Source: a virus (Duplodnaviria; Heunggongvirae; Uroviricota; Caudoviricetes). From it: a DNA stretch of 64,000 bases. Numbering within the stretch: position 1 is the stretch's first letter; every line of letters starts with the position of its first letter. The translations under genes and the position numbers were made by a program. Positions 13,280 to 57,519 of the stretch are shown in pieces. The DNA lies in the IMG/VR virus record IMGVR_UViG_3300022746_000001; one strand, written 5' to 3'. Under the pieces are notes generated by a model, which ran no database searches, was not told the DNA's origin, and was given only the letters and a program-made list of their open reading frames with translations.

Positions 13280-13676
13280 TGGCTTTCTCCGCTTCCAAAC
13301 GCTTGCGTCTTGCGGTGCGCGTCTGTTCTGCTGTTGCGGCGTCGAGACCTGTGGCACCGAGATACATCGCCAACTCTTTCCGACCTTCATAGATGGCGAC
13401 GTAGTCACCCTGAATCAGAAGCAGGCGCTGCGGTTCACCCTTGATGGCGCGTGGCAGCTCTGGGTTTTTCCGAGCGAAGTTGAGCGCGTCATTCCAAACA
13501 CAGTACGCATCCATGATGGACGTGTACTCGCCCATAGATAGGTTGCCCTCCAACGTCGAGTGGTCTTCGTCGTAGTGCTTCAGGAAGTAGCGGACAGAGT
13601 CGTCGGTGGCGTCGGCAACTGAATTGCCATACGACTGAACGAACGCCTCATCCGATGCGGTGATTTCTCTAGTCAT
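13260..13676 (-). CDS. hypothetical protein
   Basis: AAGAAGGG RBS. Confidence 0.5.
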   Translation of the reverse strand: MTREITASDEAFVQSYGNSVADATDDSVRYFLKHYDEDHSTLEGNLSMGEYTSIMDAYCVWNDALNFARKNPELPRAIKGEPQRLLLIQGDYVAIYEGRKELAMYLGATGLDAATAEQTRTARRKRLEAEKANESSTA

Positions 13677-13933
13677 TGGAATAGCCCTTCTTGGTTCTTA
13701 CCAGCTTGGTCGCCGTTCCTGGCGGCTTTGACCCAATCCGATGCTTCAGGTAGTTCGTCCTCTTCAAAGCTGTCCACGTATGCCGCGAGGCACTTGGGAC
13801 AAACCTTGGCGCGGAACTCTGGGTTGTCTAGTGGCGCGTAAATCATGTGAACGCCTTCATCGTGAGGCTCTTTGACTGCGCCGCAGATGGGTGTGCCTGC
13901 ATAAACGCCTGTCATGGTGAGGTGCATGGTCAT
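13673..13933 (-). CDS. small zinc-finger protein
   Basis: AGGAGG RBS; C...CPKC. Confidence 0.5.
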   Translation of the reverse strand: MTMHLTMTGVYAGTPICGAVKEPHDEGVHMIYAPLDNPEFRAKVCPKCLAAYVDSFEEDELPEASDWVKAARNGDQAGKNQEGLFQ

Positions 13934-14163
13934 ACAAGTGCCTCCTGTTGAAGTTGAACGGTGTTCGTGAAAAGGACTTCGTAGCTCCAGTGGCGGGGCT
14001 GCTGTCGGTTCCAGCGCTCGACTACTCTTGCCACAGCTTTCAGCATCTCCTTGACACTCATGTCGTTGATGCCTGGCACTTGAGTTGAATTGAACTCCTC
14101 CTCATAGGTCTGCCCTGTGCGAAGGTTGCGGCGTCGATACCGAAGGTTCAGAGGATTTGCCAT
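13930..14163 (-). CDS. hypothetical protein
   Basis: AGGAGAG RBS. Confidence 0.45.
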   Translation of the reverse strand: MANPLNLRYRRRNLRTGQTYEEEFNSTQVPGINDMSVKEMLKAVARVVERWNRQQPRHWSYEVLFTNTVQLQQEALV

Positions 14164-14453
14164 TTGGTCTCTCCTGTTTTGCGATACTGAAACTCAGTTG
14201 CGCCCGCTTCGTCGGTTGCCCAATCAAGCGCTTCGAAGGCGGCAAGCTCGTCAGCGATAGCTAAGTCGCCACATTTACCGCCATACAAAAGGTTGTCGTC
14301 GTCGTCCAAAATCTTGAACTCGTAAGGCAATGCGGCCGCCAGCTCGTCAAGCTCTTTGATGCGGGGGAATTTCGTACAGTTGTGGAAACTGCCCTCGTAC
14401 CTGCCTGTGAATTGCTTTTGGTGGTCGGGGTCATTTGTGATGATCCAATCCAT
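14148..14453 (-). CDS. hypothetical protein
   Basis: AAGGAG RBS; palindromic motif upstream. Confidence 0.5.
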   Translation of the reverse strand: MDWIITNDPDHQKQFTGRYEGSFHNCTKFPRIKELDELAAALPYEFKILDDDDNLLYGGKCGDLAIADELAAFEALDWATDEAGATEFQYRKTGETKWQIL

Positions 14454-14547
14454 TGCTCACTCCTTGCCTTGTTGTTTCGATAGTTCTATTGTCACGACCG
14501 AACATTGGATAAACAACGTCAGTCGTGACTTACCCTGCAAGATCGCC

Positions 14548-15240
14548 TTAACGAGCGTCGAGTTCGGCAACAATCGACGCCAGGGCTTCTTGGAGCTTCG
14601 CGATGTTGGCCGCAATCTTGGTGGATTTGGTCTTCACAGCCTTGAGGTCTGCAATCTGCTCCTCAACACGCTTGATGGCGCTGATGAGGGCTTCTTCGGT
14701 CATATTCTTCACATCGTTGCCGAAGATGTAGGACTTGGTTTCGAAGGCAGGTGCCAGTGTCGCGGTTGCGCAGGGGGATTTTGCGTAGTTGTCGTTCATG
14801 GTGTCTTCTCCTAAAGGTTGCAAAGTGCAAGGTTGGGGGTCGCCGAGAACTATCTCGACACACGGATTTGTTTTGGCAGGCTGATATACATTTGCCTTCT
14901 GCACGCCTCGCGGGGTTAGCGCGTAGCCTGCTTCGTTGAGTCGATCCAACTGATAGCCAAACTCAGCCCGATCGTTGCTAGTGGTGAACTGGTAGGGTGT
15001 GCCGAGCAGTCGGTTCCACATTTCAAGGTAAAGGAACGACCATTCAATACCTGAGAGAGCGCCAGCACTTGACTCGCCAAGTAGTAAGCGAATTGGATGG
15101 ATGTGTCTTCCAACCAAGCGCCTGAATTGTGAGAAGTTGCCTCGCTCGACTTCGTGTTTGGCTTTGAGTACGAACGCTTGATCGTTCTCCAAGCCCCACA
15201 CGTACTGAACGGTCATGTGGTCTAGTCTTTCGGGTGTCAT
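14548..15240 (-). CDS. hypothetical protein; possible second product from internal start at 14799 (coiled-coil C-terminal 83 aa)
   Basis: AAGGAG RBS at 5' end; strong AGGAGAAGACACC RBS + in-frame ATG at 14799. Confidence 0.45.
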   Translation of the reverse strand: MTPERLDHMTVQYVWGLENDQAFVLKAKHEVERGNFSQFRRLVGRHIHPIRLLLGESSAGALSGIEWSFLYLEMWNRLLGTPYQFTTSNDRAEFGYQLDRLNEAGYALTPRGVQKANVYQPAKTNPCVEIVLGDPQPCTLQPLGEDTMNDNYAKSPCATATLAPAFETKSYIFGNDVKNMTEEALISAIKRVEEQIADLKAVKTKSTKIAANIAKLQEALASIVAELDAR

Positions 15241-15341
15241 TTCATGGGTACTCCTTTACCGCTTTGCTTGCTGAAGTCTTTATTGTGCAGAGCGAGTACA
15301 GGACAAACCAGCGTTCCAGCCAGTTGCCCTGTAATGTCGCC

Positions 15342-16061
15342 TTAGTCTTCGGAGTCCTCGTCTTCATCGTCGTGGATGAAGGTAATCACCGCCTCGATGA
15401 CTTCACCCAGGCTGTTGCGGCGGAAGTAGCAGTTGTAGCTGCCATCGCCGTAACCCGAACTAGACGCTACGCCAAACTCGACAACGCCAAAGCTCTTGTC
15501 ATCCAGCGTGAGGTCGCACACCCTGCCATAGAAGTCTTCAAACGAAGAGTCCTGCGAGTCTCGTCGTGATCGGCTGTCATCTTTGTCCGAGACTGCCGCT
15601 GCGTACTTGAACACGTCAAAGAAGCCTGCTTGACCTGAGTCCACACCAACATCAATGTCGGACAGTTCCCAGTTGAAGTTCAGAGTCTCGGCGTGGTCGA
15701 ACTCCTTTTCGAAGCCTTGAGCAACGATGTGAATGTAGGCAACGCGACCGATGTACTTGGCGGATTCTGCATCATATCGAGCAATGTCAGAGGCGTGCAT
15801 TGCCGCCCACACTTCATCACCCCTCGCTTTCGCCTGCTCCATCTTGTCAACGTGTTCCTGGCGCCACTTGGCGCTCATCTCCATGTCGAGCGAGTCCTTG
15901 TGATAGCCGACGTGAGCATCCCAAGTGCCATTGCGAACATTGTCTAAGGTGCCTGCGCACCACGTATCCATGCTGTAGCAGGGGTCGGTGACACGCAGAG
16001 CATTGGACGTGACGTTGAATGTCTCAACTGCGGAGACTGAATCAATATTGGCTACTTTCAT
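15342..16061 (-). CDS. hypothetical acidic protein
   Basis: starts 2 nt after upstream stop; C-terminal DDEDEDSED. Confidence 0.55.
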   Translation of the reverse strand: MKVANIDSVSAVETFNVTSNALRVTDPCYSMDTWCAGTLDNVRNGTWDAHVGYHKDSLDMEMSAKWRQEHVDKMEQAKARGDEVWAAMHASDIARYDAESAKYIGRVAYIHIVAQGFEKEFDHAETLNFNWELSDIDVGVDSGQAGFFDVFKYAAAVSDKDDSRSRRDSQDSSFEDFYGRVCDLTLDDKSFGVVEFGVASSSGYGDGSYNCYFRRNSLGEVIEAVITFIHDDEDEDSED

Positions 16062-16063
16062 AC

Positions 16064-16480
16064 TTACCACCATGAATCGTAGGCAACAGCGCCACCATCA
16101 GCGATGACTGCGCGAGACTTGGCGACAAAGTCCAAGATGCACTGTTGATCGTCGGCGTCCAAGATTTCTTCGCTACCGAAGAAGAAGCCGGAGGTGGGTT
16201 CGAGGTTATCTCCCGCTTTCGCGTCACGCTCCAAAGCATCGAGGTCGTCAAGCGTCAGGCGAACCGTGTTGCAGTTGAATTTTTCGTCCCTGCCACCCTT
16301 ATCGGTATACAGGCGAGCCATCCAACCATGCAGGTTGTTGAACTTGCGCCAGTAGGCAAAGTCGGTGTCCACACCCTCGTTAGCTTTGCCGTCAGTGAAT
16401 AGCTTTTCTTGAAAGTCCACCTGATCGTCGTCATTCAAGATGCCTGCTTTCATAGCGTAGGCGTACATATCGAGTCCCAT
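16064..16480 (-). CDS. hypothetical acidic protein
   Basis: GGAGAG RBS; ends DSWW. Confidence 0.55.
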   Translation of the reverse strand: MGLDMYAYAMKAGILNDDDQVDFQEKLFTDGKANEGVDTDFAYWRKFNNLHGWMARLYTDKGGRDEKFNCNTVRLTLDDLDALERDAKAGDNLEPTSGFFFGSEEILDADDQQCILDFVAKSRAVIADGGAVAYDSWW

Positions 16481-16744
16481 ATTTGCTCTCCGTTTGCTGT
16501 CAAAATCGACAATTGAAGTATTTCAAGCCAGTCTAGGACTAGCAAGTCACTTGTGACTTATCCCTACTATATCGCCTGTTTCCTTGTTTGAACGGGGACG
16601 AAGCGATTAGAGCGTGCCTCCGGTGCGGTTGATACCGAGGTAGCACCTTGTCATGGAAACACAAGGCCAACGTGTTTAAAGTGGTCGCAAACCAGCGCCT
16701 GCTGGCTCGTGTATGTGCGTTTGTATAGCGTCAGGAACCACAGA

Positions 16745-21284: not shown

Positions 21285-21851
21285 TTACTCCTTTGTAGTG
21301 TGGTGATCGACAGTCGTGTGTCCACGACCATCCATGTAAGCTCTAACATCGTCCAATGAGTACGGTGTCAGGTTGTTCGTGTCGCAGCCCACGTCCATGA
21401 GCCGCATACCTTCGTAGGGATGTTTTAACGTGCCATGCGAGTGACCGTGAAGCATCCAAGAGCCGTAGTGCGCTTTGTTCCAAGTCAGCATCGGGTAGTG
21501 GCACATCACGATGCGGTCGTAACCTCCATCGCTGCGCTGCACCTTCAACTCCTTCAGGTCTTGAATAGAAGCGAAGTGTTGCGTCACCAGTGCCGACTGC
21601 CTGGCTTTGTCGTGGTTGCCCTTGATCCAGTGTTTGACGCCATTCAGACGCTTGAGGATGTTGTGGGTGTACTCGGCGTTCTTGAAAGACAGATCGCCCA
21701 AGTGAAAGATGGTGTCTTTCTTGCCTACTACCTCATTCCAACGCTCGACAATGGCTTCGTCAACTTCAGCGGCAGTCTCAAAGCCACGATTGACGTGCTT
21801 GATGATGCCTTCATGACCGAAGTGAGTGTCGGACGTAAAAAAGTAATTCAT
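21285..21851 (-). CDS. calcineurin-like metallophosphoesterase
   Basis: SDTHFGH, GDL, GNHD, GHSHG motifs; GGGGGAG RBS. Confidence 0.7.
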   Translation of the reverse strand: MNYFFTSDTHFGHEGIIKHVNRGFETAAEVDEAIVERWNEVVGKKDTIFHLGDLSFKNAEYTHNILKRLNGVKHWIKGNHDKARQSALVTQHFASIQDLKELKVQRSDGGYDRIVMCHYPMLTWNKAHYGSWMLHGHSHGTLKHPYEGMRLMDVGCDTNNLTPYSLDDVRAYMDGRGHTTVDHHTTKE

Positions 21852-22213
21852 TAGAAACTCCCCCAATTGCCTTCGTACTTTTGTCTCATTACTGCGCGAG
21901 TGAGCGGATAGCTCTCCACAACAACAGGTTCTCCACCGTCGTCCACGTCAACCTTGGCAACCTTCTCAAGTCGAAATGGAACGCAGCGAATGCCTGTATC
22001 AGTTCCAAACTCTTCCGCATCGAGGTGGTAGCGAAAGCCTAAGAAGTCGAACGTGAGGTGGTGATAGAAGCCATTGGTGCTATGACTGACGTAATCAACC
22101 GTGTTCCGCATTACCGCATCGGCAATCGTTTCGATGGCGGCGATGTGCAGACTATTGGCGCATTCGATTACGGACAGATCGTCCGGCCACTCAAGCGACT
22201 GGAGGCGAATCAT
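21851..22213 (-). CDS. hypothetical protein
   Basis: TAATG overlaps at both ends; ends GNWGSF. Confidence 0.45.
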   Translation of the reverse strand: MIRLQSLEWPDDLSVIECANSLHIAAIETIADAVMRNTVDYVSHSTNGFYHHLTFDFLGFRYHLDAEEFGTDTGIRCVPFRLEKVAKVDVDDGGEPVVVESYPLTRAVMRQKYEGNWGSF

Positions 22214-24455: not shown

Positions 24456-24656
24456 TTAAATTGCGTGTTCGACCGTGAACAGGAACGAGAAAGCCACCAC
24501 GGTCACGACAATGGCTACCAAGATCAGGAACATCCAATTGCCTACCTTACGAGCGACGGCGATCGCTTGCTTGGGGTTCTTCTTGGAGTACCAAATGAGG
24601 AACAACGAACCGAAGAAAATCGGCAAGATGAAAAAGAAGATGACTCGGAAGATCAT
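24456..24656 (-). CDS. small 2-TM membrane protein (NfeD-like partner of SPFH?)
   Basis: hydrophobic; immediately downstream of SPFH gene. Confidence 0.4.
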   Translation of the reverse strand: MIFRVIFFFILPIFFGSLFLIWYSKKNPKQAIAVARKVGNWMFLILVAIVVTVVAFSFLFTVEHAI

Positions 24657-25843
24657 TGGAACTCCGTTGTCTCGCCTTTGCGCAGCAAGTAAGCGTCCGA
24701 AACGCTCTTTGCAATCTTGCGGCCGTACTGAGGGTGTTGAGCCTCAGATGCCGACTTCACTACAACGCCTTCGCGAATCTGGCTGATATAGTTGCGCGTG
24801 ATGGTTGGCTGCACGAGTGTGTTGCCATTGGTGTGTTCGAGGACGACCTCTTTACTGTAGGGGCCGACAAAAAGAACAGGTACGATTGGCACATCCATCT
24901 CTGTAGCGGCCGCGCAGAACTCGTCCCAATGGAACCACTGCTCATTGCCTCGTGTGCCGCAGACAGCGTCAAACATCCGAAAGCCAAGCTGTTCGCGGTC
25001 ATAGGTCAGGTCTTGGACGCCAGCGCCACTGAGCGTCAGTCCATAGACTTCGCCCACCATGAAGTGCGGCTTGTTGACTTCGTTGGCGGCGTCACCGAAG
25101 TATTTCAGCGCCTTCTCAAACAGGTCATGCTTCTTGGCGCACTGGATGTAGAGGTTGGTTTCGTCAGTAAAGTCCAGAACGAAGCCTTGACGACCCATGC
25201 CTTTGCTGGAGATGGTCACACGCCCTTTGTAGTAGCGCTCATTCGCCATTGATTCAGGCACGACACCGATCTGCATGAGCGTTCCATGAATCTTCTCGGT
25301 GATGACAACTGTCTCGCCATCTTCGAACAGTTCAGGGCGCTTCTTCAGGTTCTCGAAGTCGTAGCCGAGCGTTGCTGCCAAATCGACACCAGCGATCTTG
25401 CCAGCCATGTGCGATGGGATGTGCGGCTCCCACTTTGTAATACCTAAAGCCTCAGAAGCATCTTCACCTTCGGCCAAAAGCGCCATGCCCTGATTGCCTT
25501 CATGCTCTTGCGCGACTACCATGATGGAAGTGTCGTTGTAGGGCGTGCCAGGAACCATCAAGCCTTGCGAGACGATGCCACGCAGCTTGATAGCCTTCAC
25601 ACGGTTGCCCACGCTGCCGGCGAGACCACCCTTGCCACGAGTCGAGTCCCACAGTCCCATTTCTTCGAGCAGCCACTGAGGTACGAGCGCTTGCTCAGGG
25701 ATGTAGACGCCAAGATCGCCGTCTTTGAACTGGCCCTTCTTGACGATTGATTGATAGTCGCCAACCCGAGCTATCTCGATGGCGTCTGCGTTCGGATGCG
25801 GTTCGATTTTGACGCGAACCACTTCACAGGCAAATGTACTCAT
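24653..25843 (-). CDS. putative ATP-dependent RNA ligase with N-terminal tRNA-binding OB domain
   Basis: N-terminal EPHPNADAIEIARVGD resembles CsaA/EMAP tRNA-binding fold; candidate nucleotidyltransferase lysine in VITEKIHGT. Confidence 0.5.
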   Translation of the reverse strand: MSTFACEVVRVKIEPHPNADAIEIARVGDYQSIVKKGQFKDGDLGVYIPEQALVPQWLLEEMGLWDSTRGKGGLAGSVGNRVKAIKLRGIVSQGLMVPGTPYNDTSIMVVAQEHEGNQGMALLAEGEDASEALGITKWEPHIPSHMAGKIAGVDLAATLGYDFENLKKRPELFEDGETVVITEKIHGTLMQIGVVPESMANERYYKGRVTISSKGMGRQGFVLDFTDETNLYIQCAKKHDLFEKALKYFGDAANEVNKPHFMVGEVYGLTLSGAGVQDLTYDREQLGFRMFDAVCGTRGNEQWFHWDEFCAAATEMDVPIVPVLFVGPYSKEVVLEHTNGNTLVQPTITRNYISQIREGVVVKSASEAQHPQYGRKIAKSVSDAYLLRKGETTEFQ

Positions 25844-25989
25844 TGCTTTTTACCTTCCAACTGTTGTTTCTTTTGCTCTAGCTCTTTCATGTGAGCGTCC
25901 AGCTCCTTCCACTTCTTCTCAGTGTGGAGCTGGTGAGCGCGACTGCCAGGCATCAGGGCGATGCCCTGATAGATGATTGCGCCTCTCAT
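25840..25989 (-). CDS. small Lys-rich coiled-coil protein (49 aa)
   Basis: ATGA overlaps with both neighbours; weak RBS. Confidence 0.3.
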   Translation of the reverse strand: MRGAIIYQGIALMPGSRAHQLHTEKKWKELDAHMKELEQKKQQLEGKKQ

Positions 25990-26273
25990 GCTGCTGCGGC
26001 GACAAGCGGCACTACAGATGCTGCAAACATCACCGACTGAGGGCGACCGCTTTCACCCTTGCGAGTGCCAGAACGGTGCATGAGCTTCTTCTTCTCCAGC
26101 GTCGTGTAGCGCGCCGTTACGGATGAATAAGCGAGTGTTGGGAAGTGCGAACGCACCTCGTCGGAAATGCAGCCTCGAACGCCGTAGCTTGCGATGACCT
26201 TCAGGACTTCCGTCTCTAAATGGTTCGTATCTACGGATTTCAGGGCAGCCATTGATGTTGCAACTGAGGGCAT
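25986..26273 (-). CDS. putative winged-helix DNA-binding protein
   Basis: wHTH-like segment LKVIASYGVRGCISDEVRSHF...YTTLEKKKLM. Confidence 0.45.
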   Translation of the reverse strand: MPSVATSMAALKSVDTNHLETEVLKVIASYGVRGCISDEVRSHFPTLAYSSVTARYTTLEKKKLMHRSGTRKGESGRPQSVMFAASVVPLVAAAA

Positions 26274-26302
26274 GGTTTTACCTTTCTGTCAGTGGTGACT
26301 TA

Positions 26303-27223
26303 TTAAATATGGCAATCAACGACTGTCAGGAGCGTGTCGTCAGAGAGACTGGCGATCATTTCGCCAACTTTCGCTGCCCACTCAATGTCAGTCATGTTGT
26401 CTGTGGACATTCCCCACCAGCCCATTTCGCCCTTCTCAAACCATTCACCGCCTTTCAGGACGGCAAAAGTATTGACGGCGGTAGTGTGAGCATCGTTCAT
26501 GAACTGCTCTCGGCTGACGAGGAATTTCGAGGGCGCAGTGAATGGGCCGAAGTGACGGCTGAAATCAATCACCGGAGGCTGGCTGTTGTAGACCTCGCGA
26601 GCCTTATCCCAGTCAGTTTGACCTTCGGCGTTCTTGCAGCTTTCACGAACCTCTTCCCAAGTGCGGAAGGCGCGATCTGCAAACAGTTCGTGAGCTTTGT
26701 CCCAGGCTTCACCAGCGCGGTCAGCAGCTTCTTGACGCATCCCATCAAAGTCGATTGCGCCCTTACGAGCCGAATCACAGACGCCAGCTTGAGCAGGTTT
26801 GCCGCGATCCATCCAGGGACGATCACCGTTCGTGCCGACTGCGCCTTCTTTGAGCTTCAAGAAGCCAGACCAGCGACCGCCGACTACATACCAGTCCCAT
26901 TTGCGGTTGGGGTTTGTGCGGTCGACCGCTTTGATGAGGACACCATCTTTAACAATGGCGTAACCGTATTTGTGGGGACATTCGTCGCCCACCTTCTCGA
27001 CCTTCGATTCATCGTCCACGATCTTGTCTTCAAGGCCGTAGTGGCCAAGAGCTTCTTCGATGGATTCGGGGTCTTCTTTGTCGTCAATGCGAGCCTGAAT
27101 CTCCTCAGTTACATCCTCATCCACGACATACTGGTCGTTGCTGCCAGTACATTCAAACTCATGAAATGGGGCGAGTTGTCCATCAACGTCATCCCCGATA
27201 ACCAAAACGGTAAAGTGGCTCAT
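26303..27223 (-). CDS. hypothetical Trp-rich protein
   Basis: ORF track; palindromic motifs upstream. Confidence 0.55.
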   Translation of the reverse strand: MSHFTVLVIGDDVDGQLAPFHEFECTGSNDQYVVDEDVTEEIQARIDDKEDPESIEEALGHYGLEDKIVDDESKVEKVGDECPHKYGYAIVKDGVLIKAVDRTNPNRKWDWYVVGGRWSGFLKLKEGAVGTNGDRPWMDRGKPAQAGVCDSARKGAIDFDGMRQEAADRAGEAWDKAHELFADRAFRTWEEVRESCKNAEGQTDWDKAREVYNSQPPVIDFSRHFGPFTAPSKFLVSREQFMNDAHTTAVNTFAVLKGGEWFEKGEMGWWGMSTDNMTDIEWAAKVGEMIASLSDDTLLTVVDCHI

Positions 27224-27307
27224 ATCTACTCCTTGTGTCAGTCATTAGCGACTGATTGAATTATTCAAAACGAACAGTGGGCTATCAACCGATAGCGCAG
27301 GGAACCG

Positions 27308-27472
27308 TCACTTCCCGCAAAGGTCTCCTGCTAGACGCTGACACTCGGCGCGAAAGTAGTCCAGCCACAGCAGACCATGTGCAGAGCCTTCGTAATATGG
27401 ACACTCCTCAATAGCGCCGTTACGAGCAGCCACCTCGGTGGCGTGTTTTTGAATTTGGAGAATGTCTAACAT
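27308..27472 (-). CDS. small Cys-containing protein (54 aa)
   Basis: short ORF between two copies of the palindromic motif; weak RBS. Confidence 0.25.
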   Translation of the reverse strand: MLDILQIQKHATEVAARNGAIEECPYYEGSAHGLLWLDYFRAECQRLAGDLCGK

Positions 27473-27538
27473 ACGAAACAATGCCTATTTTGAGAATCAC
27501 TAAGTCAGTGGTGACTTTGATTATAGTGGTCGAAGGCG

Positions 27539-27766
27539 TTAGTTCGCGTTCAGGAACCACCAAATCAAGCCAGAGATGGCGAACAGAACGGCGGTAATCT
27601 CCACGACAAACAAGTCTTTGTCACGGATACCGAAGCCTACAGCCGCCCACATGGATGAACCTGCGGCGCTGAAGACGATGTTGATGGGGTAGATGTTGAA
27701 GGCTGTCAGAAACATGCCGATGATGCACAAAATGGTGCCAATTCGTTTGAGAAAGGCGTACATCAT
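27539..27766 (-). CDS. small membrane protein
   Basis: 2-3 hydrophobic helices. Confidence 0.5.
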   Translation of the reverse strand: MMYAFLKRIGTILCIIGMFLTAFNIYPINIVFSAAGSSMWAAVGFGIRDKDLFVVEITAVLFAISGLIWWFLNAN

Positions 27767-27978
27767 TCGGGTGGCATCCTCACTTGAACGTCCAACGTCA
27801 AGGTTTTAGCGAAGTCGTCATCCACATAGCCTTTAAGCAGTGCGCAACGAGTGCAGCGTGGATACCCTCCCCTGCCTGGAGTTGTGTACCAGTTGCCTGG
27901 GCGATCGTCAGAGCAGCTTGTTCGTCCATGTTCAGGCACCTGTTTCAGCAGCTCATGAAAGAAGGCTTTATTCACCAT
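27763..27978 (-). CDS. hypothetical protein
   Basis: GGAGG RBS. Confidence 0.45.
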   Translation of the reverse strand: MVNKAFFHELLKQVPEHGRTSCSDDRPGNWYTTPGRGGYPRCTRCALLKGYVDDDFAKTLTLDVQVRMPPE

Positions 27979-28355
27979 AAGTCCTCCGAGAACAGCTCTG
28001 GGCCTTGATAGCCGCCAGGATTGCGATTGAGCTGTCCGGTCTGCTCGGCGATCAGAAACGCCTGCTTGCGGTTCAAAAACGTGCCGTTCGCATCCAGAAA
28101 GCCTTGAACGTCTGGGCCGTAGACGCCACCGATCATGCGAATCACGTCATGGTGACGGTTCGGCGCCGGCAGCGAGAACACCTTGTTGGCGTACTTGATG
28201 GCGACGTGCGTGATCTTCTGAGGGTTCTCCAGCGCTTCTTGTACTGGGTCTGGCTTCACCTTCTTGCCCCAAATGCGCTCATGACCTTCCTTGAAGGCTT
28301 CTGTAGTCACTTTGGTGGCGATCAGGTCGCCGGTAATATCGTTCTCTGCAATCAT
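27972..28355 (-). CDS. hypothetical protein (possible small HD-domain phosphohydrolase)
   Basis: AAGGAG RBS; H...HHD pattern; ends EDLW. Confidence 0.45.
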   Translation of the reverse strand: MIAENDITGDLIATKVTTEAFKEGHERIWGKKVKPDPVQEALENPQKITHVAIKYANKVFSLPAPNRHHDVIRMIGGVYGPDVQGFLDANGTFLNRKQAFLIAEQTGQLNRNPGGYQGPELFSEDLW

Positions 28356-28564
28356 GCGTTCTCCTTTACGTTGTTCTCGGTCTCCACGTCATCGACGAAC
28401 ACATACTCCTCACCCACTTCTGCGCGGTGCTGTTCCAATTCGTTTAGGTAGGTATTGAGTTCGTCGTAAAGATACTCAGGCAAACTGTCGTACATGGCTT
28501 CAGTCTTGCCGTCGTCCCATGTGAAAGCGACTTTGACTTGGCAGATGCGTTTTATGTCTGTCAT
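28352..28564 (-). CDS. hypothetical protein
   Basis: AAGGAG RBS before internal ATG (MTDIK). Confidence 0.45.
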   Translation of the reverse strand: MTDIKRICQVKVAFTWDDGKTEAMYDSLPEYLYDELNTYLNELEQHRAEVGEEYVFVDDVETENNVKENA

Positions 28565-28725
28565 TTCCACTCCTTTGGATTCCACAGTGGCGCTACCACT
28601 TGAAAGAATTGCAGAACCGATCGGAACACCAGTTTGATGGCGTCGATCACGAAGTCACCCATCGCAGCGGCGAGAAGTATAAGGGTGGCGAAAATTGAGT
28701 AAAAAAGTTGGCGCGGGATTTTCAT
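28561..28725 (-). CDS. small membrane peptide (54 aa)
   Basis: ATGA overlap with downstream gene; hydrophobic; no clear RBS. Confidence 0.3.
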   Translation of the reverse strand: MKIPRQLFYSIFATLILLAAAMGDFVIDAIKLVFRSVLQFFQVVAPLWNPKEWK

Positions 28726-28734
28726 TTTCTGGGT

Positions 28735-28992
28735 TTACCAAGTTTGAAGGTCTTCCATCACCTCGACGGCTGCCGGCTTGGGTCGTGCTTCGCACAGAGC
28801 TTGAGCCTCACCGATAAGGTGAATGAAGTCCTTGTCGTGGACGAGACCCGAAACAGCCATAAACAAAACGTCAACGCCTGTTGAGAACTGCTGCGGTGTG
28901 ATCTTTTCTTGGGAAACTGCGAGAGTCAGCCAAGTCAATGTCTCAATTGCCTTGCGGTCGATTTCTTCTTGAAGGGTGGGCAACTGAGACAT
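28735..28992 (-). CDS. hypothetical protein
   Basis: GAGGAG RBS; ends LQTW. Confidence 0.45.
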   Translation of the reverse strand: MSQLPTLQEEIDRKAIETLTWLTLAVSQEKITPQQFSTGVDVLFMAVSGLVHDKDFIHLIGEAQALCEARPKPAAVEVMEDLQTW

Positions 28993-29071
28993 AAACTCCT
29001 CGCATATTTGCTGTCGATAATTGATTGTAGAAACAGAATCACGGGCAAGCTAGTCACCCGTGACTGATTCC

Positions 29072-29704
29072 CTAGTGGATAGTTAAAGTCCCCTGAGCTT
29101 TCAATGATTCGTAGTTAGCGAGAACATTGGACTTCGAGCGTGTGACCGCCGAGTGCAGAGCTGAGACACGATCATCCAAGTTGGTCATGTGGCGAGGCAT
29201 GTAAAAGTGAGAACACTTCACACTCTCGTCCACCGACAAGCCAAAGATCAACGAGTTCAGATGCTCGATGTACGCCTCATTCATTGCGGCTTTACCCTCT
29301 GCTTTCACGAGGGCGATGCCTGGCTGAACGAGTAAGATGACTCCAAAACGCTTGTTGGTCGTCTCAAAGCACTTGTTGACGTAGGCTTTGACACGATCTT
29401 GGCAGTTATCGGGGACTCGGTCTCCGATAGCGTCACCAAGAAGGTAGCCAGCCATATCAATCGGCGTTCTATCAGTCACAAACTCTGTGCCAGATATGGC
29501 GCCGTACTTTTGGTCGATGCGCTCAAGAATTTCTTCCTGAATGCCCAAGCGAGTCTCGAAGTCGTACAGTGCGGCGGGGTCGTACCCAAGTTCGCGCCAG
29601 ATGGCACTTACCGAGGTCTCGAAAAAGGGAATGCCATGCCTGTCAGCGTAAGCCTTTGCAAGCGTTGACTTCCCTGTTCGGTGGGCGCCACACAAACCGA
29701 TCAT
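29072..29704 (-). CDS. P-loop NTPase, putative nucleotide/nucleoside kinase
   Basis: Walker A GAHRTGKST at N-terminus. Confidence 0.55.
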   Translation of the reverse strand: MIGLCGAHRTGKSTLAKAYADRHGIPFFETSVSAIWRELGYDPAALYDFETRLGIQEEILERIDQKYGAISGTEFVTDRTPIDMAGYLLGDAIGDRVPDNCQDRVKAYVNKCFETTNKRFGVILLVQPGIALVKAEGKAAMNEAYIEHLNSLIFGLSVDESVKCSHFYMPRHMTNLDDRVSALHSAVTRSKSNVLANYESLKAQGTLTIH

Positions 29705-30318
29705 TCAGTCTTGCCTTCCAAGACAGCACGTTCGGCGTCGAGGTCACGGTTCAAGGTGCCTTCGGCATTAAAGGTTTGACCCTTGTTGCGCAGCTCCAGC
29801 TTCTTGATGTTCTTCTCGCGCTCAACATCCTCGTCGGTGCCGGCAGCATCGTGACCCAGAGCCTGATACCAGCTAATGTCGCCACCGATTTCTTCACCCC
29901 AACCTACCGTGTCGAATGGTTTGCCCTGAAGTTGGTCACGAACCAATTCCAACGCTTCACCTGCTTCTGTGAAGATGCCAATTGCTGAGTGCAGTAAACG
30001 CAGGTTGATGTTCTTAGGATCAACGGTACGTGCGTCTTCGGGGAGCGCGTTGTATTGCTCCTTGTCGTTCTTGTCAGCCAAGTGATCGCTCAACTCGTAG
30101 GTCAACTGGGCGAAGCCACCAATGTCGCTTGCCAGCTTACGAACCAGTTCACCGTCCAACGGCTTGCCGTAAAAGATGGTGCGCTTCACTTGGTTGAGGA
30201 GTTCAGCCATCTGAATCGCGCCTGAGAGAACGATATGCAGGCCGACCTCGCCGAAGTTCAGTTCAGAAGGCTTGCTTTCAGTCAGCAAGGCGCGTTGTTG
30301 GTACTCTTTGAAGTTCAT
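29701..30318 (-). CDS. MazG-like nucleotide pyrophosphohydrolase (tentative)
   Basis: all-alpha; N-terminal EYQQRALLT and GGDISWYQALG segments. Confidence 0.4.
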   Translation of the reverse strand: MNFKEYQQRALLTESKPSELNFGEVGLHIVLSGAIQMAELLNQVKRTIFYGKPLDGELVRKLASDIGGFAQLTYELSDHLADKNDKEQYNALPEDARTVDPKNINLRLLHSAIGIFTEAGEALELVRDQLQGKPFDTVGWGEEIGGDISWYQALGHDAAGTDEDVEREKNIKKLELRNKGQTFNAEGTLNRDLDAERAVLEGKTE

Positions 30319-30330
30319 GAATGTTCTTTC

Positions 30331-30555
30331 TTAGGGGTTGATGATTGCGCTCAACTTGGCGCGAACACTCACGGCGTTCGCAGCTTCGTCTTTGGCATTC
30401 TTTGCCGCAGACAGGGCATCATTCGCGATTGCGGTTTGACGCTCTGCTTCGGCGGTTTGCGCGGTTGCTACGGTCTCCAAGTCAGTGATGGCTTGGGCGA
30501 AAACGCTCATAACGTCAGAGACGGTGCGTTTGGGGTTCAAAATGTTGGACAACAT
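30331..30555 (-). CDS. hypothetical protein
   Basis: ORF track; Ala-rich. Confidence 0.4.
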   Translation of the reverse strand: MLSNILNPKRTVSDVMSVFAQAITDLETVATAQTAEAERQTAIANDALSAAKNAKDEAANAVSVRAKLSAIINP

Positions 30556-30583
30556 GGTGCTGCTTCTTTCTTTCAGTTATGAC

Positions 30584-31423
30584 TTATGACTTTACCGTCA
30601 AGGTCGTGGGGAAAAGCGTAGCCTCGACGATCTTCCGGTACTGTTGCCAGCCCCTGAAGTTGCCAGACCATTGATCGGCTCCGATTGGAGACGCTTGATG
30701 CTCGATAGGCGACGCATGAAGCGGAACGCTACCGACGAGGCGATCGTAGAGAGCAATGTCCTTTTCGATCGTTGGATTCTCACCGTCATGAGTGAGGTAG
30801 GAGACACGAGCGCATCGTGCGGCAGAAGCCTTGAGTAAGGTCTCAATGTCCAATTGCTCTCGCTCTTGATCTTGGACGTAAGGCAGATGCCAAACACCAT
30901 GCTTGAGCGCTTTGGGCGTTGATTGCTCCATTGCGGTCTTCATCACAATGGCAAGCGCTTGAATCTCTGGCTGCGCATCAGGATGTGCGCGCAAGGCAAA
31001 GAAGTTATCCCACTCTGTAGCCGTCACAATCACGCTAATGAATTGAAACGGTTCCAAGATGCGGTTCGCAACTTGCTTGTGCAGTCCGTGCTTCTCCATG
31101 AACTCAGCAGTCGCGGCAGCTTCACGCGCAGCTTGTTGCCAAGCTCGCATCATGGTCTCAAGCTCTTGCCCCTGCATTTCTGCACTCGCCTGCATTCCTG
31201 GCTGATTCTTGCCCCAGTGAACTGGCATCGCAGGGTTAGTGCGAACCTGCTCAATCATCTTGGCAACAGGAATGGCGCGTGACGAGCTGGCGTTACGGCT
31301 AAACACCCGATGCGTCATGAACTCAGCATGGATGAAGCGCGGATAGCGCAACTGAAGTGTGGTCAGACGAACGCCACCAGGGGAAATGGAGTCTTCAATG
31401 ACTCGTGCGGAGATTCCACTCAT
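30584..31423 (-). CDS. thyX: flavin-dependent thymidylate synthase ThyX
   Basis: ThyX signature RHRVFSRNASSSR (RHRX7S). Confidence 0.85.
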   Translation of the reverse strand: MSGISARVIEDSISPGGVRLTTLQLRYPRFIHAEFMTHRVFSRNASSSRAIPVAKMIEQVRTNPAMPVHWGKNQPGMQASAEMQGQELETMMRAWQQAAREAAATAEFMEKHGLHKQVANRILEPFQFISVIVTATEWDNFFALRAHPDAQPEIQALAIVMKTAMEQSTPKALKHGVWHLPYVQDQEREQLDIETLLKASAARCARVSYLTHDGENPTIEKDIALYDRLVGSVPLHASPIEHQASPIGADQWSGNFRGWQQYRKIVEATLFPTTLTVKS

Positions 31424-31905
31424 TAGTTGGCTCGCATAGCTCGGGTCATGGGGCCGCCAGGTGCCTTCACAGACGCCTTGATCGGTGTGACTTTCTTCGC
31501 CTTGACCAGCTTGAGACGGGTCGAGGAGATGAACATGCTCTCTGCCGGAGTTTTCTTCGTGGCGTTCTCAGGCTTAGTCACGTCAAAGTAAACGCAGCCG
31601 TTCATGAAGATGGACTTCATGCTTGCGACACCTTTAAAGCCACTCAAGATGCACTCCACCTCGTCACCGAGACTGATGGACACAGGTTGAGGCTCTTTAG
31701 CGAGTTCGCTGATGCCTTTGCCTTTGACCTTCAAGGTGGCAGCGTCAAAGTTCACTTGTTCGGGGAACTTCTCAGAGCCTTTAGTAACCTTTGGGGTCAC
31801 GGTGTACTGGACGTTGCCGCTAAACAGCTCGATGCGGGCAGTGGCAGTGCCTTCGTAACCTGATTGCAGGTCTGTGACGATTGAGCCTAATTTAATGTCT
31901 TCCAT
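31423..31905 (-). CDS. hypothetical protein
   Basis: ORF track; ATGG overlap with thyX. Confidence 0.5.
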   Translation of the reverse strand: MEDIKLGSIVTDLQSGYEGTATARIELFSGNVQYTVTPKVTKGSEKFPEQVNFDAATLKVKGKGISELAKEPQPVSISLGDEVECILSGFKGVASMKSIFMNGCVYFDVTKPENATKKTPAESMFISSTRLKLVKAKKVTPIKASVKAPGGPMTRAMRAN

Positions 31906-31914
31906 GAAAACTCC

Positions 31915-32163
31915 TTAGTTCGATTGAGGCGTGCGGTTGAACGCGCTCGGAAAAACAATCAGCTTGATGAAGCCAATCAGCACAAGCATCCCAGTCATGT
32001 CCCAGAAGCCCATGTTGAGATACACGGCTGGAACAAAACTGAAGTAGATTGGGCCGAGCCAACTCCAGAGAAAGCTAAGAGGCATGGCAATGAAAATCGC
32101 CATGAGTGCGGAAATGATCCAACCGACGATCGGCAGAATCGTGAGCTTTGCTAGTCCTTGCAT
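31915..32163 (-). CDS. membrane protein (3 TM)
   Basis: hydrophobic. Confidence 0.5.
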   Translation of the reverse strand: MQGLAKLTILPIVGWIISALMAIFIAMPLSFLWSWLGPIYFSFVPAVYLNMGFWDMTGMLVLIGFIKLIVFPSAFNRTPQSN

Positions 32164-32172
32164 GAGAACTCC

Positions 32173-32661
32173 TTATTTACGACCGTAGGACGAGTAGCTC
32201 GTACTGCGGCTTGGGGTGCTTGAATGGCTGTAACCTGTGGTTGCAGGCTTGTACGCAGGCACGGGAGCCGGTGCTGGCTTTGGTGTAGCGACAGGGGCTG
32301 GTGCAGGCGTGGGGACTGGCGCTGGCTTCGGTGCTTCATGGACAATCGTCTTGTTGATGACTGTCTTATTGACCACCGTCTCATGGCGAGTAGCGCTGCC
32401 GCCACCGCTGTTGCCAGAACTACCAATCATGTGACCGATCATTCCACCGATCAGCATGTTTTGCAGGGTGTTGTCGTGCTGCTGTGGCGCTTGCTGGACA
32501 ATCACCTGTTGAGGCTGCGGAGCTACCGCAGGTTGTTGTTGGGCCATCTGCTGCTGTTGCTGTTGCAACTGAACCGGAGATGGGCCAGCGTCGTTCTCAT
32601 GACCGCCACAAGCTGTCAAAGCCATCATGAGAGCTGCCAATGTGGTGTACTTAAATGGCAT
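32173..32661 (-). CDS. lipoprotein with Gln-rich, glycine-zipper and Pro/Ala-rich regions
   Basis: signal peptide + lipobox LTAC; GGMIGHMIGSSGNSGGG; PAPVPTPAPAPVATPKPAPAP. Confidence 0.55.
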   Translation of the reverse strand: MPFKYTTLAALMMALTACGGHENDAGPSPVQLQQQQQQMAQQQPAVAPQPQQVIVQQAPQQHDNTLQNMLIGGMIGHMIGSSGNSGGGSATRHETVVNKTVINKTIVHEAPKPAPVPTPAPAPVATPKPAPAPVPAYKPATTGYSHSSTPSRSTSYSSYGRK

Positions 32662-33056
32662 TACTCAAACGTCGCATAGGAGTTAATTACGAACATTGAT
32701 TCCAACATTCGACGAATCGGTTGCTTGTGATCGTGGCGACGAATCATCACAGTCGAGCCATCAAAGAAGTTGGCTGCTGCATAGGCGCGACCTGCCAGCT
32801 TTGTGGGCTTGTCATCTGGGTGGCTGATGGCTGTCGAGATTTCGATCACGTCTTTGCGCACGACGCGATAGGCGATCGTGGTGCCGTGACCGTGAATGTC
32901 AGCTTGGTAGCCATGACCAGGGGTCAAGCGTCGGATGGGAACGAACACGAAGCGAATGTCTTGCTCGATGGCGTTCGCGACGGTCTCCTTCATAGCCAGG
33001 CGTTCTTCAGCAACTTTCTGTTGCCGCTGAAGTGCCTTCTCTTGTTCAGGGTGCAT
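32661..33056 (-). CDS. hypothetical protein
   Basis: ORF track; first gene downstream of palindromic motif at 33080. Confidence 0.5.
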   Translation of the reverse strand: MHPEQEKALQRQQKVAEERLAMKETVANAIEQDIRFVFVPIRRLTPGHGYQADIHGHGTTIAYRVVRKDVIEISTAISHPDDKPTKLAGRAYAAANFFDGSTVMIRRHDHKQPIRRMLESMFVINSYATFE

Positions 33057-33140
33057 AGATTTCTCCGGTAGTTAAGTCACTAATGACTTTGAGATTATAG
33101 AGAGCGAAAACTTATAGAAGACGGCAATGCGTCAAGTCCC

Positions 33141-33169
33141 CAAATGAAAACACCTGCTAAATGCAGGTG
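33141..33169 (-). terminator. rho-independent terminator at 3' end of tRNA array
   Basis: stem CACCTGC/GCAGGTG with T-runs on both sides. Confidence 0.55.
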
Positions 33170-33175
33170 CTGTTT

Positions 33176-33263
33176 TGGCGGAAGCGGTGAGATTCGAACT
33201 CACGGAACCTTGCGGTTCGACTGGGTTCAAGCCAGTTGCCATAGACCACTCGACCACACTTCC
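33176..33263 (-). tRNA. tRNA-Ser (anticodon UGA), CCA encoded
   Basis: long variable arm; anticodon loop CTTGAAC; T-arm GGTTCGAATCTC. Confidence 0.8.
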
Positions 33264-33270
33264 TAAATCT

Positions 33271-33355
33271 TGGTGCCCAGAGTCGGACTCGAACCGACAC
33301 GCCTCGCGGCGACGGCTTCTGAGGCCGTTGCGTCTACCAATTTCACCACCTGGGC
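33271..33355 (-). tRNA. tRNA-Leu (anticodon CAG), CCA encoded
   Basis: anticodon loop CTCAGAA; long variable arm; T-loop GTTCGAGTC. Confidence 0.8.
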
Positions 33356-33356
33356 T

Positions 33357-33432
<76 letters not shown>

Positions 33433-33535
33433 ATCATGAATGAAGGCTTTCGTCCAGCTCGGGATAGGTCGGTAGTTAGCCGTTTCAGTTTCACCCGTCC
33501 CCTGGGAATCGAACCCAGAAGCCTTCATTCATGAT
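33433..33535 (-). other. about 100-nt element with 15-bp terminal inverted repeats containing a tRNA T-arm-like hairpin (tRNA-like fragment / structured RNA / miniature insertion)
   Basis: ATCATGAATGAAGGC ... GCCTTCATTCATGAT flank CTGGGTTCGATTCCCAG (minus strand) and tandem TGAAAC repeats; no complete cloverleaf found. Confidence 0.35.
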
Positions 33536-33610
33536 GGTGCCGCCTTGAGGAATTGAACCCCAGACCTTCTGCTTACAAGGCAGCTGCTCTACCAACTGAG
33601 CTAAGGCGGC
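33535..33610 (-). tRNA. tRNA-Thr (anticodon UGU), CCA encoded
   Basis: GCCGCCTTAGCTCAGTTGGTAGAGC; anticodon loop CTTGTAA; 7-bp acceptor stem. Confidence 0.75.
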
Positions 33611-33614
33611 TTAA

Positions 33615-33691
33615 TGGTCGGAGATGCAGGATTCGAACCTGCGACCCTCTGCTCCCAAAGCAGATGCGCTACCAGACTGCGCTAATCTCCG
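33615..33691 (-). tRNA. tRNA-Pro (anticodon UGG), CCA encoded
   Basis: CGGAGATTAGCGCAGTCTGGTAGCGC; anticodon loop TTTGGGA. Confidence 0.8.
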
Positions 33692-33695
33692 ATAC

Positions 33696-33770
33696 TGGTA
33701 CTCGGTGCGGGAATCGAACCCGCCTTACCGCCGTGAAAGGGCGGTGTCCTAACCGATAGACGAACCGAGC
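33696..33770 (-). tRNA. tRNA-Glu (anticodon UUC), CCA encoded
   Basis: anticodon stem-loop CCGCC-CTTTCAC-GGCGG; T-arm GCGGGTTCGATTCCCGC. Confidence 0.75.
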
Positions 33771-33861
33771 GTTCCATCAAGTCTGTTCTCTCGTGGGTCA
33801 AGCTACTCCTTTGCCGTCAAGAGGCTTGTTTCACCATTCCTCTTAGAGAGGACAGACTTCA

Positions 33862-33937
33862 TGGCTCCCCAGGGTGGGTTCGAACCACCGACACATGGAT
33901 TAACAGTCCATTGCTCTACCAACTGAGCTACTAGGGA
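33862..33937 (-). tRNA. tRNA-Asn (anticodon GUU), CCA encoded
   Basis: TCCCTAGTAGCTCAGTTGGTAGAGC; anticodon loop CTGTTAA. Confidence 0.8.
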
Positions 33938-34034
33938 ATGACGGTGCGTATGGAGTTGTACCCCAGACGTTTGTCGGCTTTTATAGTCCCCACACCTTTA
34001 GGACTACCGTGTCTCTGTTCTTCTTGCAAGAAAC

Positions 34035-34111
34035 TGGTTGCGGGGGCAGGACTCGAACCTGCGACCTCTGGATTATGAGTCCAGCGCTCTAACCTACTGA
34101 GCTACCCCGCT
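34035..34111 (-). tRNA. tRNA-Met (anticodon CAU; elongator or Ile2-type), CCA encoded
   Basis: anticodon loop CTCATAA; A1xA72 unpaired; no GGG/CCC initiator anticodon stem. Confidence 0.7.
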
Positions 34112-34170
34112 TCAATCTTTCAATGTATGAATCTTATATAAGTTTTCGCGGGTTTGCAAGTCACCACTGA

Positions 34171-34341
34171 CTTATTTTAAAGATCGCCTGATTATTTCTT
34201 CTTGAAAGCTGCCTCATGCTCAGAATAGCGTTCCAATGACTCGCGCAATGTTGTGAACATCGCGATAGCTTGGCGCTCTCTTTGAGCTTCTAAGACGGGG
34301 TCAATCACGTCCTCTTCAGTGTCGGTTTGGTTCTCAGTCAT
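34171..34341 (-). CDS. small acidic protein (56 aa)
   Basis: GGAG RBS 5 nt before ATG; MTENQTDTEEDVIDPVLEAQRERQAIAMFTTLRESLERYSEHEAAFKEEIIRRSLK; below track cutoff. Confidence 0.4.
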
Positions 34342-57518: not shown

Positions 57519-57519
57519 G

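Follow-up and report, generated by a model that had tools for sequence, protein, structure and literature searches.

Does a phage that carries both a tRNA array and an RNA ligase gene use the two together against host enzymes that cut tRNAs? We addressed this question for a 64,000-nucleotide (nt) stretch of Caudoviricetes DNA (IMG/VR record IMGVR_UViG_3300022746_000001; hereafter the window), in which eight tRNA genes lie several kilobases from a gene for a 396-residue putative RNA ligase of the Rnl5 family. A preliminary description of this DNA had proposed that array and ligase form a module against anticodon nucleases. This was not borne out: the two appear to occupy separate transcription units, relatives can have either one without the other, a search of the window revealed no end-healing enzyme, and Rnl5 enzymes are sealers of duplex nicks (PMC4408790). 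The reading that we favor, with moderate confidence, is that array and ligase are two ordinary accessory features, independently transcribed and inherited, and not a dedicated module. The window shows known kinds only: a large phage with a tRNA operon and a ligase from an established family. Coordinates are collected in Table 1, where, as in the text, L-numbers (e.g., L005, L110) denote loci of relatives.

The 396-residue open reading frame (ORF) is present as first described and contains both strings that had been singled out in it, EPHPNADAIEIARVGD and EKIHGT. Its product is a member of the Rnl5 family (DraRnl/NgrRnl), a placement based on profile matches to TIGR02306 and PHROGs, on sequence and fold matches to NgrRnl, and on invariant catalytic positions. 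Hidden Markov model searches gave 199.8 bits for TIGR02306 (RNA_lig_DRB0094; NCBIfam), an equivalog model built on Deinococcus DRB0094 (DraRnl) with a curated cutoff of 151.15 bits, and the match paired residues 10-388 with positions 8-341 of the 341 in the model. PHROG 968, "RNA ligase", matched over the full length (2.6e-41), and Pfam recognized PF21189 ("PHA02142 OB-fold"; residues 12-98, E-value 8e-15) followed by PF09414 (RNA_ligase; residues 178-381, E-value 9e-18). Among solved structures, the only strong sequence relatives were those of the Naegleria gruberi Rnl5 (NgrRnl). An AlphaFold model of the ligase (pLDDT 82) also matched NgrRnl over ~400 columns (E-value ~1e-18, TM-score 0.70-0.72), with the beta-rich N-terminal domain of the model superposed as part of this match; T4 Rnl2, REL1, and Rnl3 enzymes matched the catalytic domain only. 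Motifs I, III, IV, and V were all found, with K184, the lysine of EKIHGT, as the motif I lysine, so that the proposed architecture of an N-terminal OB domain and a nucleotidyltransferase core was recovered as that of Rnl5; invariance of residues was judged over 25 homologs. An invariant histidine, H186, stands at the position of motif I Asp172 of NgrRnl. TIGR02306 was matched to its last position and the protein ends 17 residues past K379 of motif V, with no C-terminal appendage.

The N-terminal domain had also been described as a CsaA/EMAP-like tRNA-binding fold. A distant likeness was found, with sub-threshold matches to PF01588 (tRNA_bind) in 9 of 25 relatives (best E-value 0.002) and PheRS beta in the fold search at an E-value of 2e-3. 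The NgrRnl counterpart of this domain was shown to contact the ATP gamma-phosphate, not tRNA (PMC7261155). That domain has a demonstrated role in lysine adenylylation (PMC7261155, PMC4408790), and its contacts to the gamma-phosphate are made by Arg4 and Lys121 (PMC7261155). K137 of the window ligase aligns with Lys121, and the equivalent of Arg4 falls beyond the alignment.

Two small ORFs with overlapping stops and starts (92-95 and 48-49 residues) lie directly upstream of the ligase gene in L001-L007 as they do in the window, and the ligase is predicted to be translationally coupled to this conserved pair and not to anything RNA-related. Just upstream of the unit is a gene for a 306-residue protein (26303-27223, minus strand; PHROG 10079, no Pfam or NCBIfam match), which in relatives alternates with or accompanies an Nmad5-domain protein. 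This ORF was rejected as a partner of the ligase because it is retained in relatives that lack the ligase. A gene for a DnaQ-like exonuclease, 1.2 kb downstream of the ligase, is conserved in all relatives, and a denV-like glycosylase gene is near.

Turning to the array, ARAGORN returned exactly the eight tRNAs of the preliminary description (Ser-tga, Leu-cag, Trp-cca, Thr-tgt, Pro-tgg, Glu-ttc, Asn-gtt, and Met-cat). These eight are its calls for the whole window; all are on the minus strand within 33176-34111, with Rfam tRNA scores of 51-72 bits (gathering score, 29). The terminator reported at the end of the array was likewise found, as a hairpin and T-run directly after tRNA-Ser. The palindromic motif said to head the array is indeed present upstream (AGTCAGTGGTGACT, 34159-34172), but it is not specific to the array: AGTCA-N4-TGACT occurs in 12 exact copies in the window, compared with 0.08 expected by chance, and the relaxed form GTCA-N4-TGAC at 21 sites. 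All 12 exact copies are intergenic and upstream of a gene, some of them directly before a ribosome-binding site, and the palindrome probably acts as an operator, as a promoter element peculiar to the phage, or as a hairpin of 5' untranslated regions. The promoter-like block upstream of the array also precedes the arrays of L005, L006, and L007; it failed the sigma-70 criteria of the promoter tool.

The distance from array to ligase had been given as about 8 kb. The two are in fact separated by several kilobases, with a gap of 7.3 kb (25843 to 33176) that holds ~17 ORFs. Between them lie the terminator and at least three palindromic elements (at 33075, 29052, and 27503), as well as a relaxed copy at 26288, just upstream of the two small ORFs that precede the ligase. 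From this layout, array and ligase are predicted to belong to separate transcription units.

Comparison with relatives suggests that inheritance is separate as well. The array comes after the ribonucleotide reductase gene in every close relative, and its tRNA count varies (6, 5, 5, and 9) while the ligase stays; a Met-Asn-Pro-Thr core is constant. Presence and absence were then compared over 80 ThyX-anchored loci of the extended group, a set that represents one phage group and not diverse phages. Arrays occurred without Rnl5 in the slot between the 306-residue ORF and DnaQ in L090 and L091 (8 and 7 tRNAs in range) and in L094 (3 tRNAs), and conversely Rnl5 occurred without a tRNA in range in L099 and L130 (and in L009). 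In L110 (14213-15795), Rnl5 lacks residues ~99-305, that is, the catalytic core, and the neighboring RtcB is cut to 42 codons, with three tRNAs between them. The region thus reads as an accessory zone of changing content, whose ligase and tRNAs are gained and lost independently of each other.

In its classical form, the proposal has a host nuclease of the PrrC/colicin type breaking anticodon loops, with ends of the 2',3'-cyclic phosphate and 5'-OH type as the result; the phage ligase would rejoin these ends, and the array would mark the attacked tRNAs. The precedent is T4 Pnkp and Rnl1 against PrrC (PMC7824862, PMC10264068), and the intact ligase motifs, the tRNA-rich neighborhoods of Rnl5 genes, and the distant likeness of the N-terminal domain to tRNA-binding OB folds all speak for it. 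However, such ends need a kinase and a phosphatase before an ATP-dependent ligase can act, and neither was found in the window: Pfam, PHROGs, and NCBIfam scans of ~65 window ORFs detected no Pnkp, RtcB, 2H or HAD-type phosphatase, Hen1, or RlaP, and no match to AAA_33 or HAD_PNKP. The sole P-loop kinase-like protein of the window (AAA_28; 29072-29704) was rejected as a polynucleotide kinase on account of its nucleoside/dTMP-kinase-like fold; no polynucleotide kinase appeared among the top 50 fold matches of its model (pLDDT 89), most of which were deoxynucleoside and thymidylate kinases. Its gene adjoins MazG and ThyX and is present in relatives without Rnl5. The ligase, moreover, is not of the Rnl1 type (no PF09511 match). 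NgrRnl and DraRnl join 3'-OH/5'-PO4 nicks in duplexes with RNA as the 3'-OH strand and are feeble on single-stranded RNA, and breaks in stem-loops suit Rnl1 and Rnl4, not nick sealers (PMC4408790). Together with the apparently separate transcription and loss of array and ligase, these points make the classical model highly improbable for this locus.

Several observations weigh against treating array and ligase as independent features. A calcineurin-like phosphoesterase (21285-21866) is left as a candidate 3'-end healing enzyme; Protein Data Bank sequence searches with it and with the AAA_28 protein gave nothing informative. Since the window covers 64 kb of a ~105-kb genome, leaving ~42 kb outside it, a healing enzyme could also sit elsewhere in the genome. 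Within the clade of the window, RtcB was found in the same region in L008 (1572-2792), L009 (4028-5329), L101 (~15311-16522), and L131 (~13547-14740). Of 80 diverse phage Rnl5 loci, 35 had a tRNA no more than 10 kb away, as did 20 of the 40 lineages that remained on dereplication, compared with 21 of the 80 ThyX-anchored loci, and in several unrelated phages the ligase abuts the array or is embedded in it (L054, L070, L075, L077, L022, and L082). RNA-repair genes also form a minority of Rnl5 neighbors (Rnl1, three; Thg1-like, two; AAA_33/HAD_PNKP, one or two; Ro60, one).

Examined more strictly, these associations did not amount to tight linkage. The 149 same-strand neighbors of Rnl5 included no dominant partner. 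A per-kilobase profile placed tRNAs at 15% within 0-2 kb of Rnl5 and at 6% within 4-10 kb, but it was inflated by truncated, tRNA-dense contigs, and the apparent twofold enrichment next to Rnl5 disappeared in a stricter paired test on loci with full flanks. Across phage lineages this test gave 8 of 27 against 21% (P = 0.12, not significant), and over all 51 full-flank Rnl5 loci the values were 21.6% and 20.9%; therefore, we claim no tight linkage. Rnl5 genes tend to reside in tRNA-rich accessory neighborhoods with an RNA-repair flavor, without demonstrable tight linkage to the tRNAs.

A different coupling would need no healing enzyme. Toprim or PIN nucleases, of the OLD/PARIS or VapC type, would nick tRNAs, often in the anticodon stem, to leave 3'-OH/5'-PO4 ends; Rnl5 would then reseal single nicks and phage tRNAs would replace those beyond repair, with tRNA-Thr(UGU), whose anticodon stem is shortened, and the rest of the core (tRNA-Met, tRNA-Asn, and tRNA-Pro) standing in for cut host tRNAs. 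P2-OLD, a Toprim enzyme, cleaves the anticodon stem of tRNA-Thr(UGU) and leaves such ligatable 5'-P/3'-OH ends, and a tRNA with a single nick was resealed by T4 Rnl2 (PMC12445682), a biochemical analogue of Rnl5. This coupling accounts for the lack of a healing enzyme and is the one route by which Rnl5 could repair tRNA without one. The tRNA-Thr(UGU) of the window, part of the conserved Met-Asn-Pro-Thr core, is the only one of the eight with an unpaired 27:43 position (G.A), a trait shared with 6 of 11 clade orthologues. It parallels the escape of a coliphage tRNA-Thr, in which U43A unpairs 27:43 and a motif change accompanies it, both being required for resistance to OLD in Escherichia coli (PMC12445682). 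The window tRNA-Thr, however, keeps the CUG/CAG cleavage motif of P2-OLD, and its mismatch may simply come from the host tRNA-Thr. With ligase and array lost independently and not significantly linked across lineages, we rate this coupling, including its replacement arm, as distinctly unlikely.

Alternatively, the ligase could be purely an enzyme of DNA replication and repair, sealing nicks with ribonucleotide 3' ends, whether from gap filling or as remnants of primers, beside the separate DNA ligase and having no role in RNA repair. Knock-out of DraRnl makes Deinococcus more sensitive to ionizing radiation and delays genome reassembly, with nick-sealing activity required; this phenotype, interpreted as sealing of ribonucleotide-patched DNA nicks, is the sole in vivo evidence for Rnl5 (PMC5397189). 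The window gene, too, lies inside a replication and repair block (DnaQ-like exonuclease, denV-like glycosylase, SbcCD, RecA, and Pol III alpha). Yet in other phage lineages the neighbors include some of RNA type (Rnl1, Pnkp, Thg1-like, Ro60, and RtcB), the phage already has a DNA ligase, and some relatives lose Rnl5, so that an exclusive DNA role seems unlikely.

We return to the favored reading of two independent features. The tRNA operon would be read from its own conserved upstream block and ended by its own terminator, and the primary transcript would comprise eight tRNAs and two structured spacer RNAs, presumably cut apart by host RNase P and 3'-processing enzymes. The ligase, if it follows the chemistry of NgrRnl and DraRnl, would react with ATP to form a K184-AMP adduct, its N-terminal OB domain helping to orient the ATP. 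It would then pass the AMP to a 5'-phosphate and seal the 3'-OH/5'-PO4 nick of a duplex in which RNA supplies the 3'-OH strand, so that both ligatable ends and a base-paired context would be needed. It would most likely act generically on RNA-ended nicks that form while the phage infects, be they at ribonucleotide patches or primer remnants of phage DNA or within base-paired RNA. The window represents a well-conserved phage clade with Rnl5 but no end-healing partner found in the window, and this narrows the candidate substrates of Rnl5 to breaks that already bear 3'-OH/5'-PO4 ends. Because the recently described Toprim tRNases make such ends, the question of tRNA repair is directly testable; the Toprim/PIN coupling, if true, would provide the first physiological substrate for phage Rnl5 enzymes.

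For the tRNAs, the favored role is to supplement translation of phage mRNAs. Over 54 window genes (14,090 codons; G+C content at third codon positions, 0.61), the array would read the top leucine, proline, and asparagine codons of the phage, CUG (relative synonymous codon usage [RSCU], 1.98), CCA (1.37), and AAC (1.45), as well as codons used near parity, UCA (0.98), ACA (0.91), and GAA (0.99). This usage, calculated for the phage side, is what a supply role would lead one to expect, the more so with a GC-rich host, but by itself it does not tell compensation from evasion.

The acceptor stem of the tRNA(CAU) begins with an A1xA72 mismatch that is kept in several relatives, and in L005 (1702-1778) and L006 (1503-1578) this tRNA has GGG/CCC in the anticodon stem as well. 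Both are initiator-like traits, but the D-stem 11:24 pair is of elongator type. The near absence of AUA codons (RSCU 0.11) makes a lysidine-modified tRNA-Ile2 unlikely. In L007, an anticodon arm like that of tRNA-Tyr (CGGACTGTAAATCCG) lies in the Pro-Thr gap (2400-2488), where ARAGORN made no call; other relatives have tRNA-Tyr in this place, and the L007 sequence is probably a degenerate or unusual version of it.

Two of the spacers within the array are predicted to be structured RNAs. Element A, of ~90 nt, was found in nine distinct copies in seven phages, with variants in L005 and L006, and each copy starts 2-3 nt past a tRNA 3' end. Two boxes in it are conserved (YCTMWAAGAGG and CCCACSAG), and its closing stem of 16 bp covaries strongly, with 8 of the 16 pairs changed on both sides. 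In this stem 89% of cells were paired, compared with at most 42% in slid controls, and none of 500 shuffles matched the observed score. Element B has a perfect T-arm mimic (CTGGGTTCGATTCCCAG) within its core and likewise a 16-bp closing stem; its single orthologue, L011 1291-1392 (z-score -3.8), has a nearly invariant core and two compensatory stem changes. We rejected both elements as overlooked tRNAs because neither was called by ARAGORN or Rfam and their closing stems, of 15-16 bp, are too long. At permissive thresholds the spacers matched no Rfam family, the weak YrlA and tRNA-like matches all overlapping true tRNAs, and pattern scans of IMG/VR returned mostly chance matches outside the clade, so the elements were found in this phage clade only.

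The source is probably an uncultured phage of ~105-112 kb with a Burkholderiales host. Proteins identical to the ligase and ThyX also occur on metagenomic contigs of 105-112 kb, and relatives at 55-86% identity number in the hundreds, on contigs of ~100-110 kb. The host is indicated by the nearest relatives in named isolates, which are a Massilia sp. 113-kb contig, a Herminiimonas contig, and a Cupriavidus metallidurans 107-kb contig. A DNA-level search against deposited phages gave tRNA-sized matches only, so there is no cultured close relative.

Almost all genes of the window are on the minus strand and, by Pfam, PHROGs, and NCBIfam scans, they form a replication and nucleotide-metabolism block. 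Nucleotide metabolism is represented by a class II ribonucleotide reductase, ThyX, and a MazG-like pyrophosphatase; recombination and repair by SbcCD, RecA, a 5'-3' exonuclease, a gp32-like single-stranded DNA-binding protein, and a denV-like glycosylase; and replication by a Pol III alpha fused to a uracil-DNA glycosylase domain, a DnaQ-like exonuclease, an ATP-dependent DNA ligase, a primase, and a helicase. A sigma factor and CobS/CobT-like proteins are also encoded. The uracil-DNA-glycosylase-superfamily domain is C-terminal in the Pol III alpha-type replicase (46806-50261, minus strand; residues 999-1100). The replication module also holds a tyrosine integrase gene (56244-57596, minus strand) with Arm-DNA-binding, central, and catalytic domains. 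This gene is flanked by the CobT-like gene and guanylate kinase, in a stretch where GC is lower (0.48-0.50); it could be a sign of a temperate lifestyle or of a mobile insertion in the phage genome. In L008 and L009, the accessory region that holds Rnl5 also contains NAD-salvage genes (NAMPT with NMNAT-Nudix, or PRPP synthase).

Table 1. Features of the tRNA array, the ligase gene, and their surroundings (window coordinates unless a relative is named; MFE, minimum free energy; z, z-score)
Feature	Position	Strand	Remarks
Putative Rnl5-family ATP-dependent RNA ligase gene	24653-25843	-	396 residues
Ligase N-terminal OB domain	25550-25810	-	Residues 12-98; PF21189; aligns to NgrRnl N-domain
Ligase nucleotidyltransferase domain	24701-25312	-	Residues 178-381; PF09414; motifs I, III, IIIa, IV, V
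K137, GITKWEP box			NgrRnl K121, ATP gamma-phosphate contact (PMC7261155); invariant
K184, EKIHGT, motif I	25292-25294 (codon)		NgrRnl K170; invariant
E265, motif III			NgrRnl E227; invariant
F291-D292, motif IIIa			Invariant
E358, REGVVVK, motif IV			NgrRnl E312; invariant
K379, motif V			NgrRnl K326; invariant
Two small ORFs	25840-26273	-	95 and 49 residues; overlap each other and the ligase start
Palindromic element at head of ligase-containing unit	27503-27516	-	
Palindromic element between array and ligase	29052-29065	-	
Palindromic element opening next transcription unit downstream of array	33075-33088	-	
Intrinsic-terminator-like hairpin and T-run closing the tRNA operon	33149-33171	-	Conserved in L005/L006 downstream regions
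tRNA-Ser (UGA), last array gene	33176-33263	-	ARAGORN and Rfam
tRNA-Leu (CAG)	33271-33355	-	ARAGORN and Rfam
tRNA-Trp (CCA)	33357-33432	-	ARAGORN and Rfam
Element B, structured spacer RNA between tRNA-Thr and tRNA-Trp	33433-33534	-	102 nt; MFE -42.6, z -4.65
tRNA-Thr (UGU)	33535-33610	-	ARAGORN and Rfam; G27.A43 mismatch leaves a 4-bp anticodon stem
tRNA-Pro (UGG)	33615-33691	-	ARAGORN and Rfam
tRNA-Glu (UUC)	33696-33770	-	ARAGORN and Rfam
Element A, structured spacer RNA between tRNA-Asn and tRNA-Glu	33771-33861	-	MFE -31.6, z -3.6
Element A copies in relatives	L007 2227-2312; L011 787-873 and 1037-1123; L093 7824-7911; L094 7944-8028; L090 7817-7949		
tRNA-Asn (GUU)	33862-33937	-	ARAGORN and Rfam
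tRNA-Met/tRNA-Asn spacer	33938-34034	-	Not significantly structured; z -1.3
tRNA-Met (CAU), first array gene	34035-34111	-	ARAGORN and Rfam; A1xA72 mismatch
Conserved upstream block of array, promoter-like	34131-34172	-	AGTCA-N4-TGACT, TTGCAA, then CTTATATAAGAT
AGTCA-N4-TGACT copies, 14 nt each	300, 16545, 27503, 29052, 33075, 34159, 36908, 38716, 41777, 46786, 52920, 55084		
Phage sigma factor	50990-51643		
ATP-dependent DNA ligase	59092-60453		Separate from Rnl5

Phage homologs of DraRnl were pointed out as early as 2015 (PMC4408790). Like DraRnl and NgrRnl, the window ligase, which is known from its sequence and a predicted structure, has an N-terminal OB domain, then a nucleotidyltransferase domain, and no C-terminal appendage. 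It differs from NgrRnl in being ~55 residues longer, with an insertion around residues 100-125, at ~22% identity, and in a motif I that reads KIHGT, with the invariant histidine instead of Asp172; this we take to be the T4 Rnl2 spelling of the motif. With T4 Rnl2 and the kinetoplastid RNA-editing ligases it shares the PF09414 domain (profile E-value 6e-5, fold E-value 1e-8), and the same nick-sealing chemistry is expected. Members of the Rnl2 family, in contrast, lack the N-terminal OB domain and carry an extra domain at the C terminus, and TIGR02307 (Rnl2) gave the window ligase 17.7 bits against a cutoff of 197.

As in the T4 response to PrrC by Pnkp and Rnl1, the phage combines an ATP-dependent RNA ligase with a tRNA cluster. 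Unlike T4, the window has neither a PF09511 (Rnl1-type) ligase nor Pnkp, and Rnl5 prefers duplex nicks over loop breaks (PMC4408790). Earlier publications already propose that phages use tRNAs and RNA ligases against host tRNases: in the model of Iyer et al. (2021), phage tRNAs are supplemented by RNA ligases (RtcB, Rnl1, Rnl2), kinases, and phosphoesterases against host tRNases (PMC7824862), and evasion of tRNases by phage tRNAs was modeled by van den Berg et al. (2023) (PMC10264068). In the former, healing enzymes are reported to be generally congruent with ATP-dependent ligases (PMC7824862), unlike in the window, where none was found; what agrees with it is that a large phage here has both tRNAs and an RNA ligase, and that relatives have RtcB and NAD-salvage genes in the same region.

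The structured spacers, finally, have counterparts of their own in other phages. Species 1 and 2 RNAs of T4 are small stable RNAs embedded in the phage tRNA cluster. In PAK_P3, sRNA2 is located between two phage tRNAs (PMC4933390). Elements A and B, predicted from DNA sequence, differ from these RNAs in having no detected sequence or Rfam kinship; what they share with them is a length of ~90-100 nt, a predicted structure, and a position between tRNA genes of one operon.

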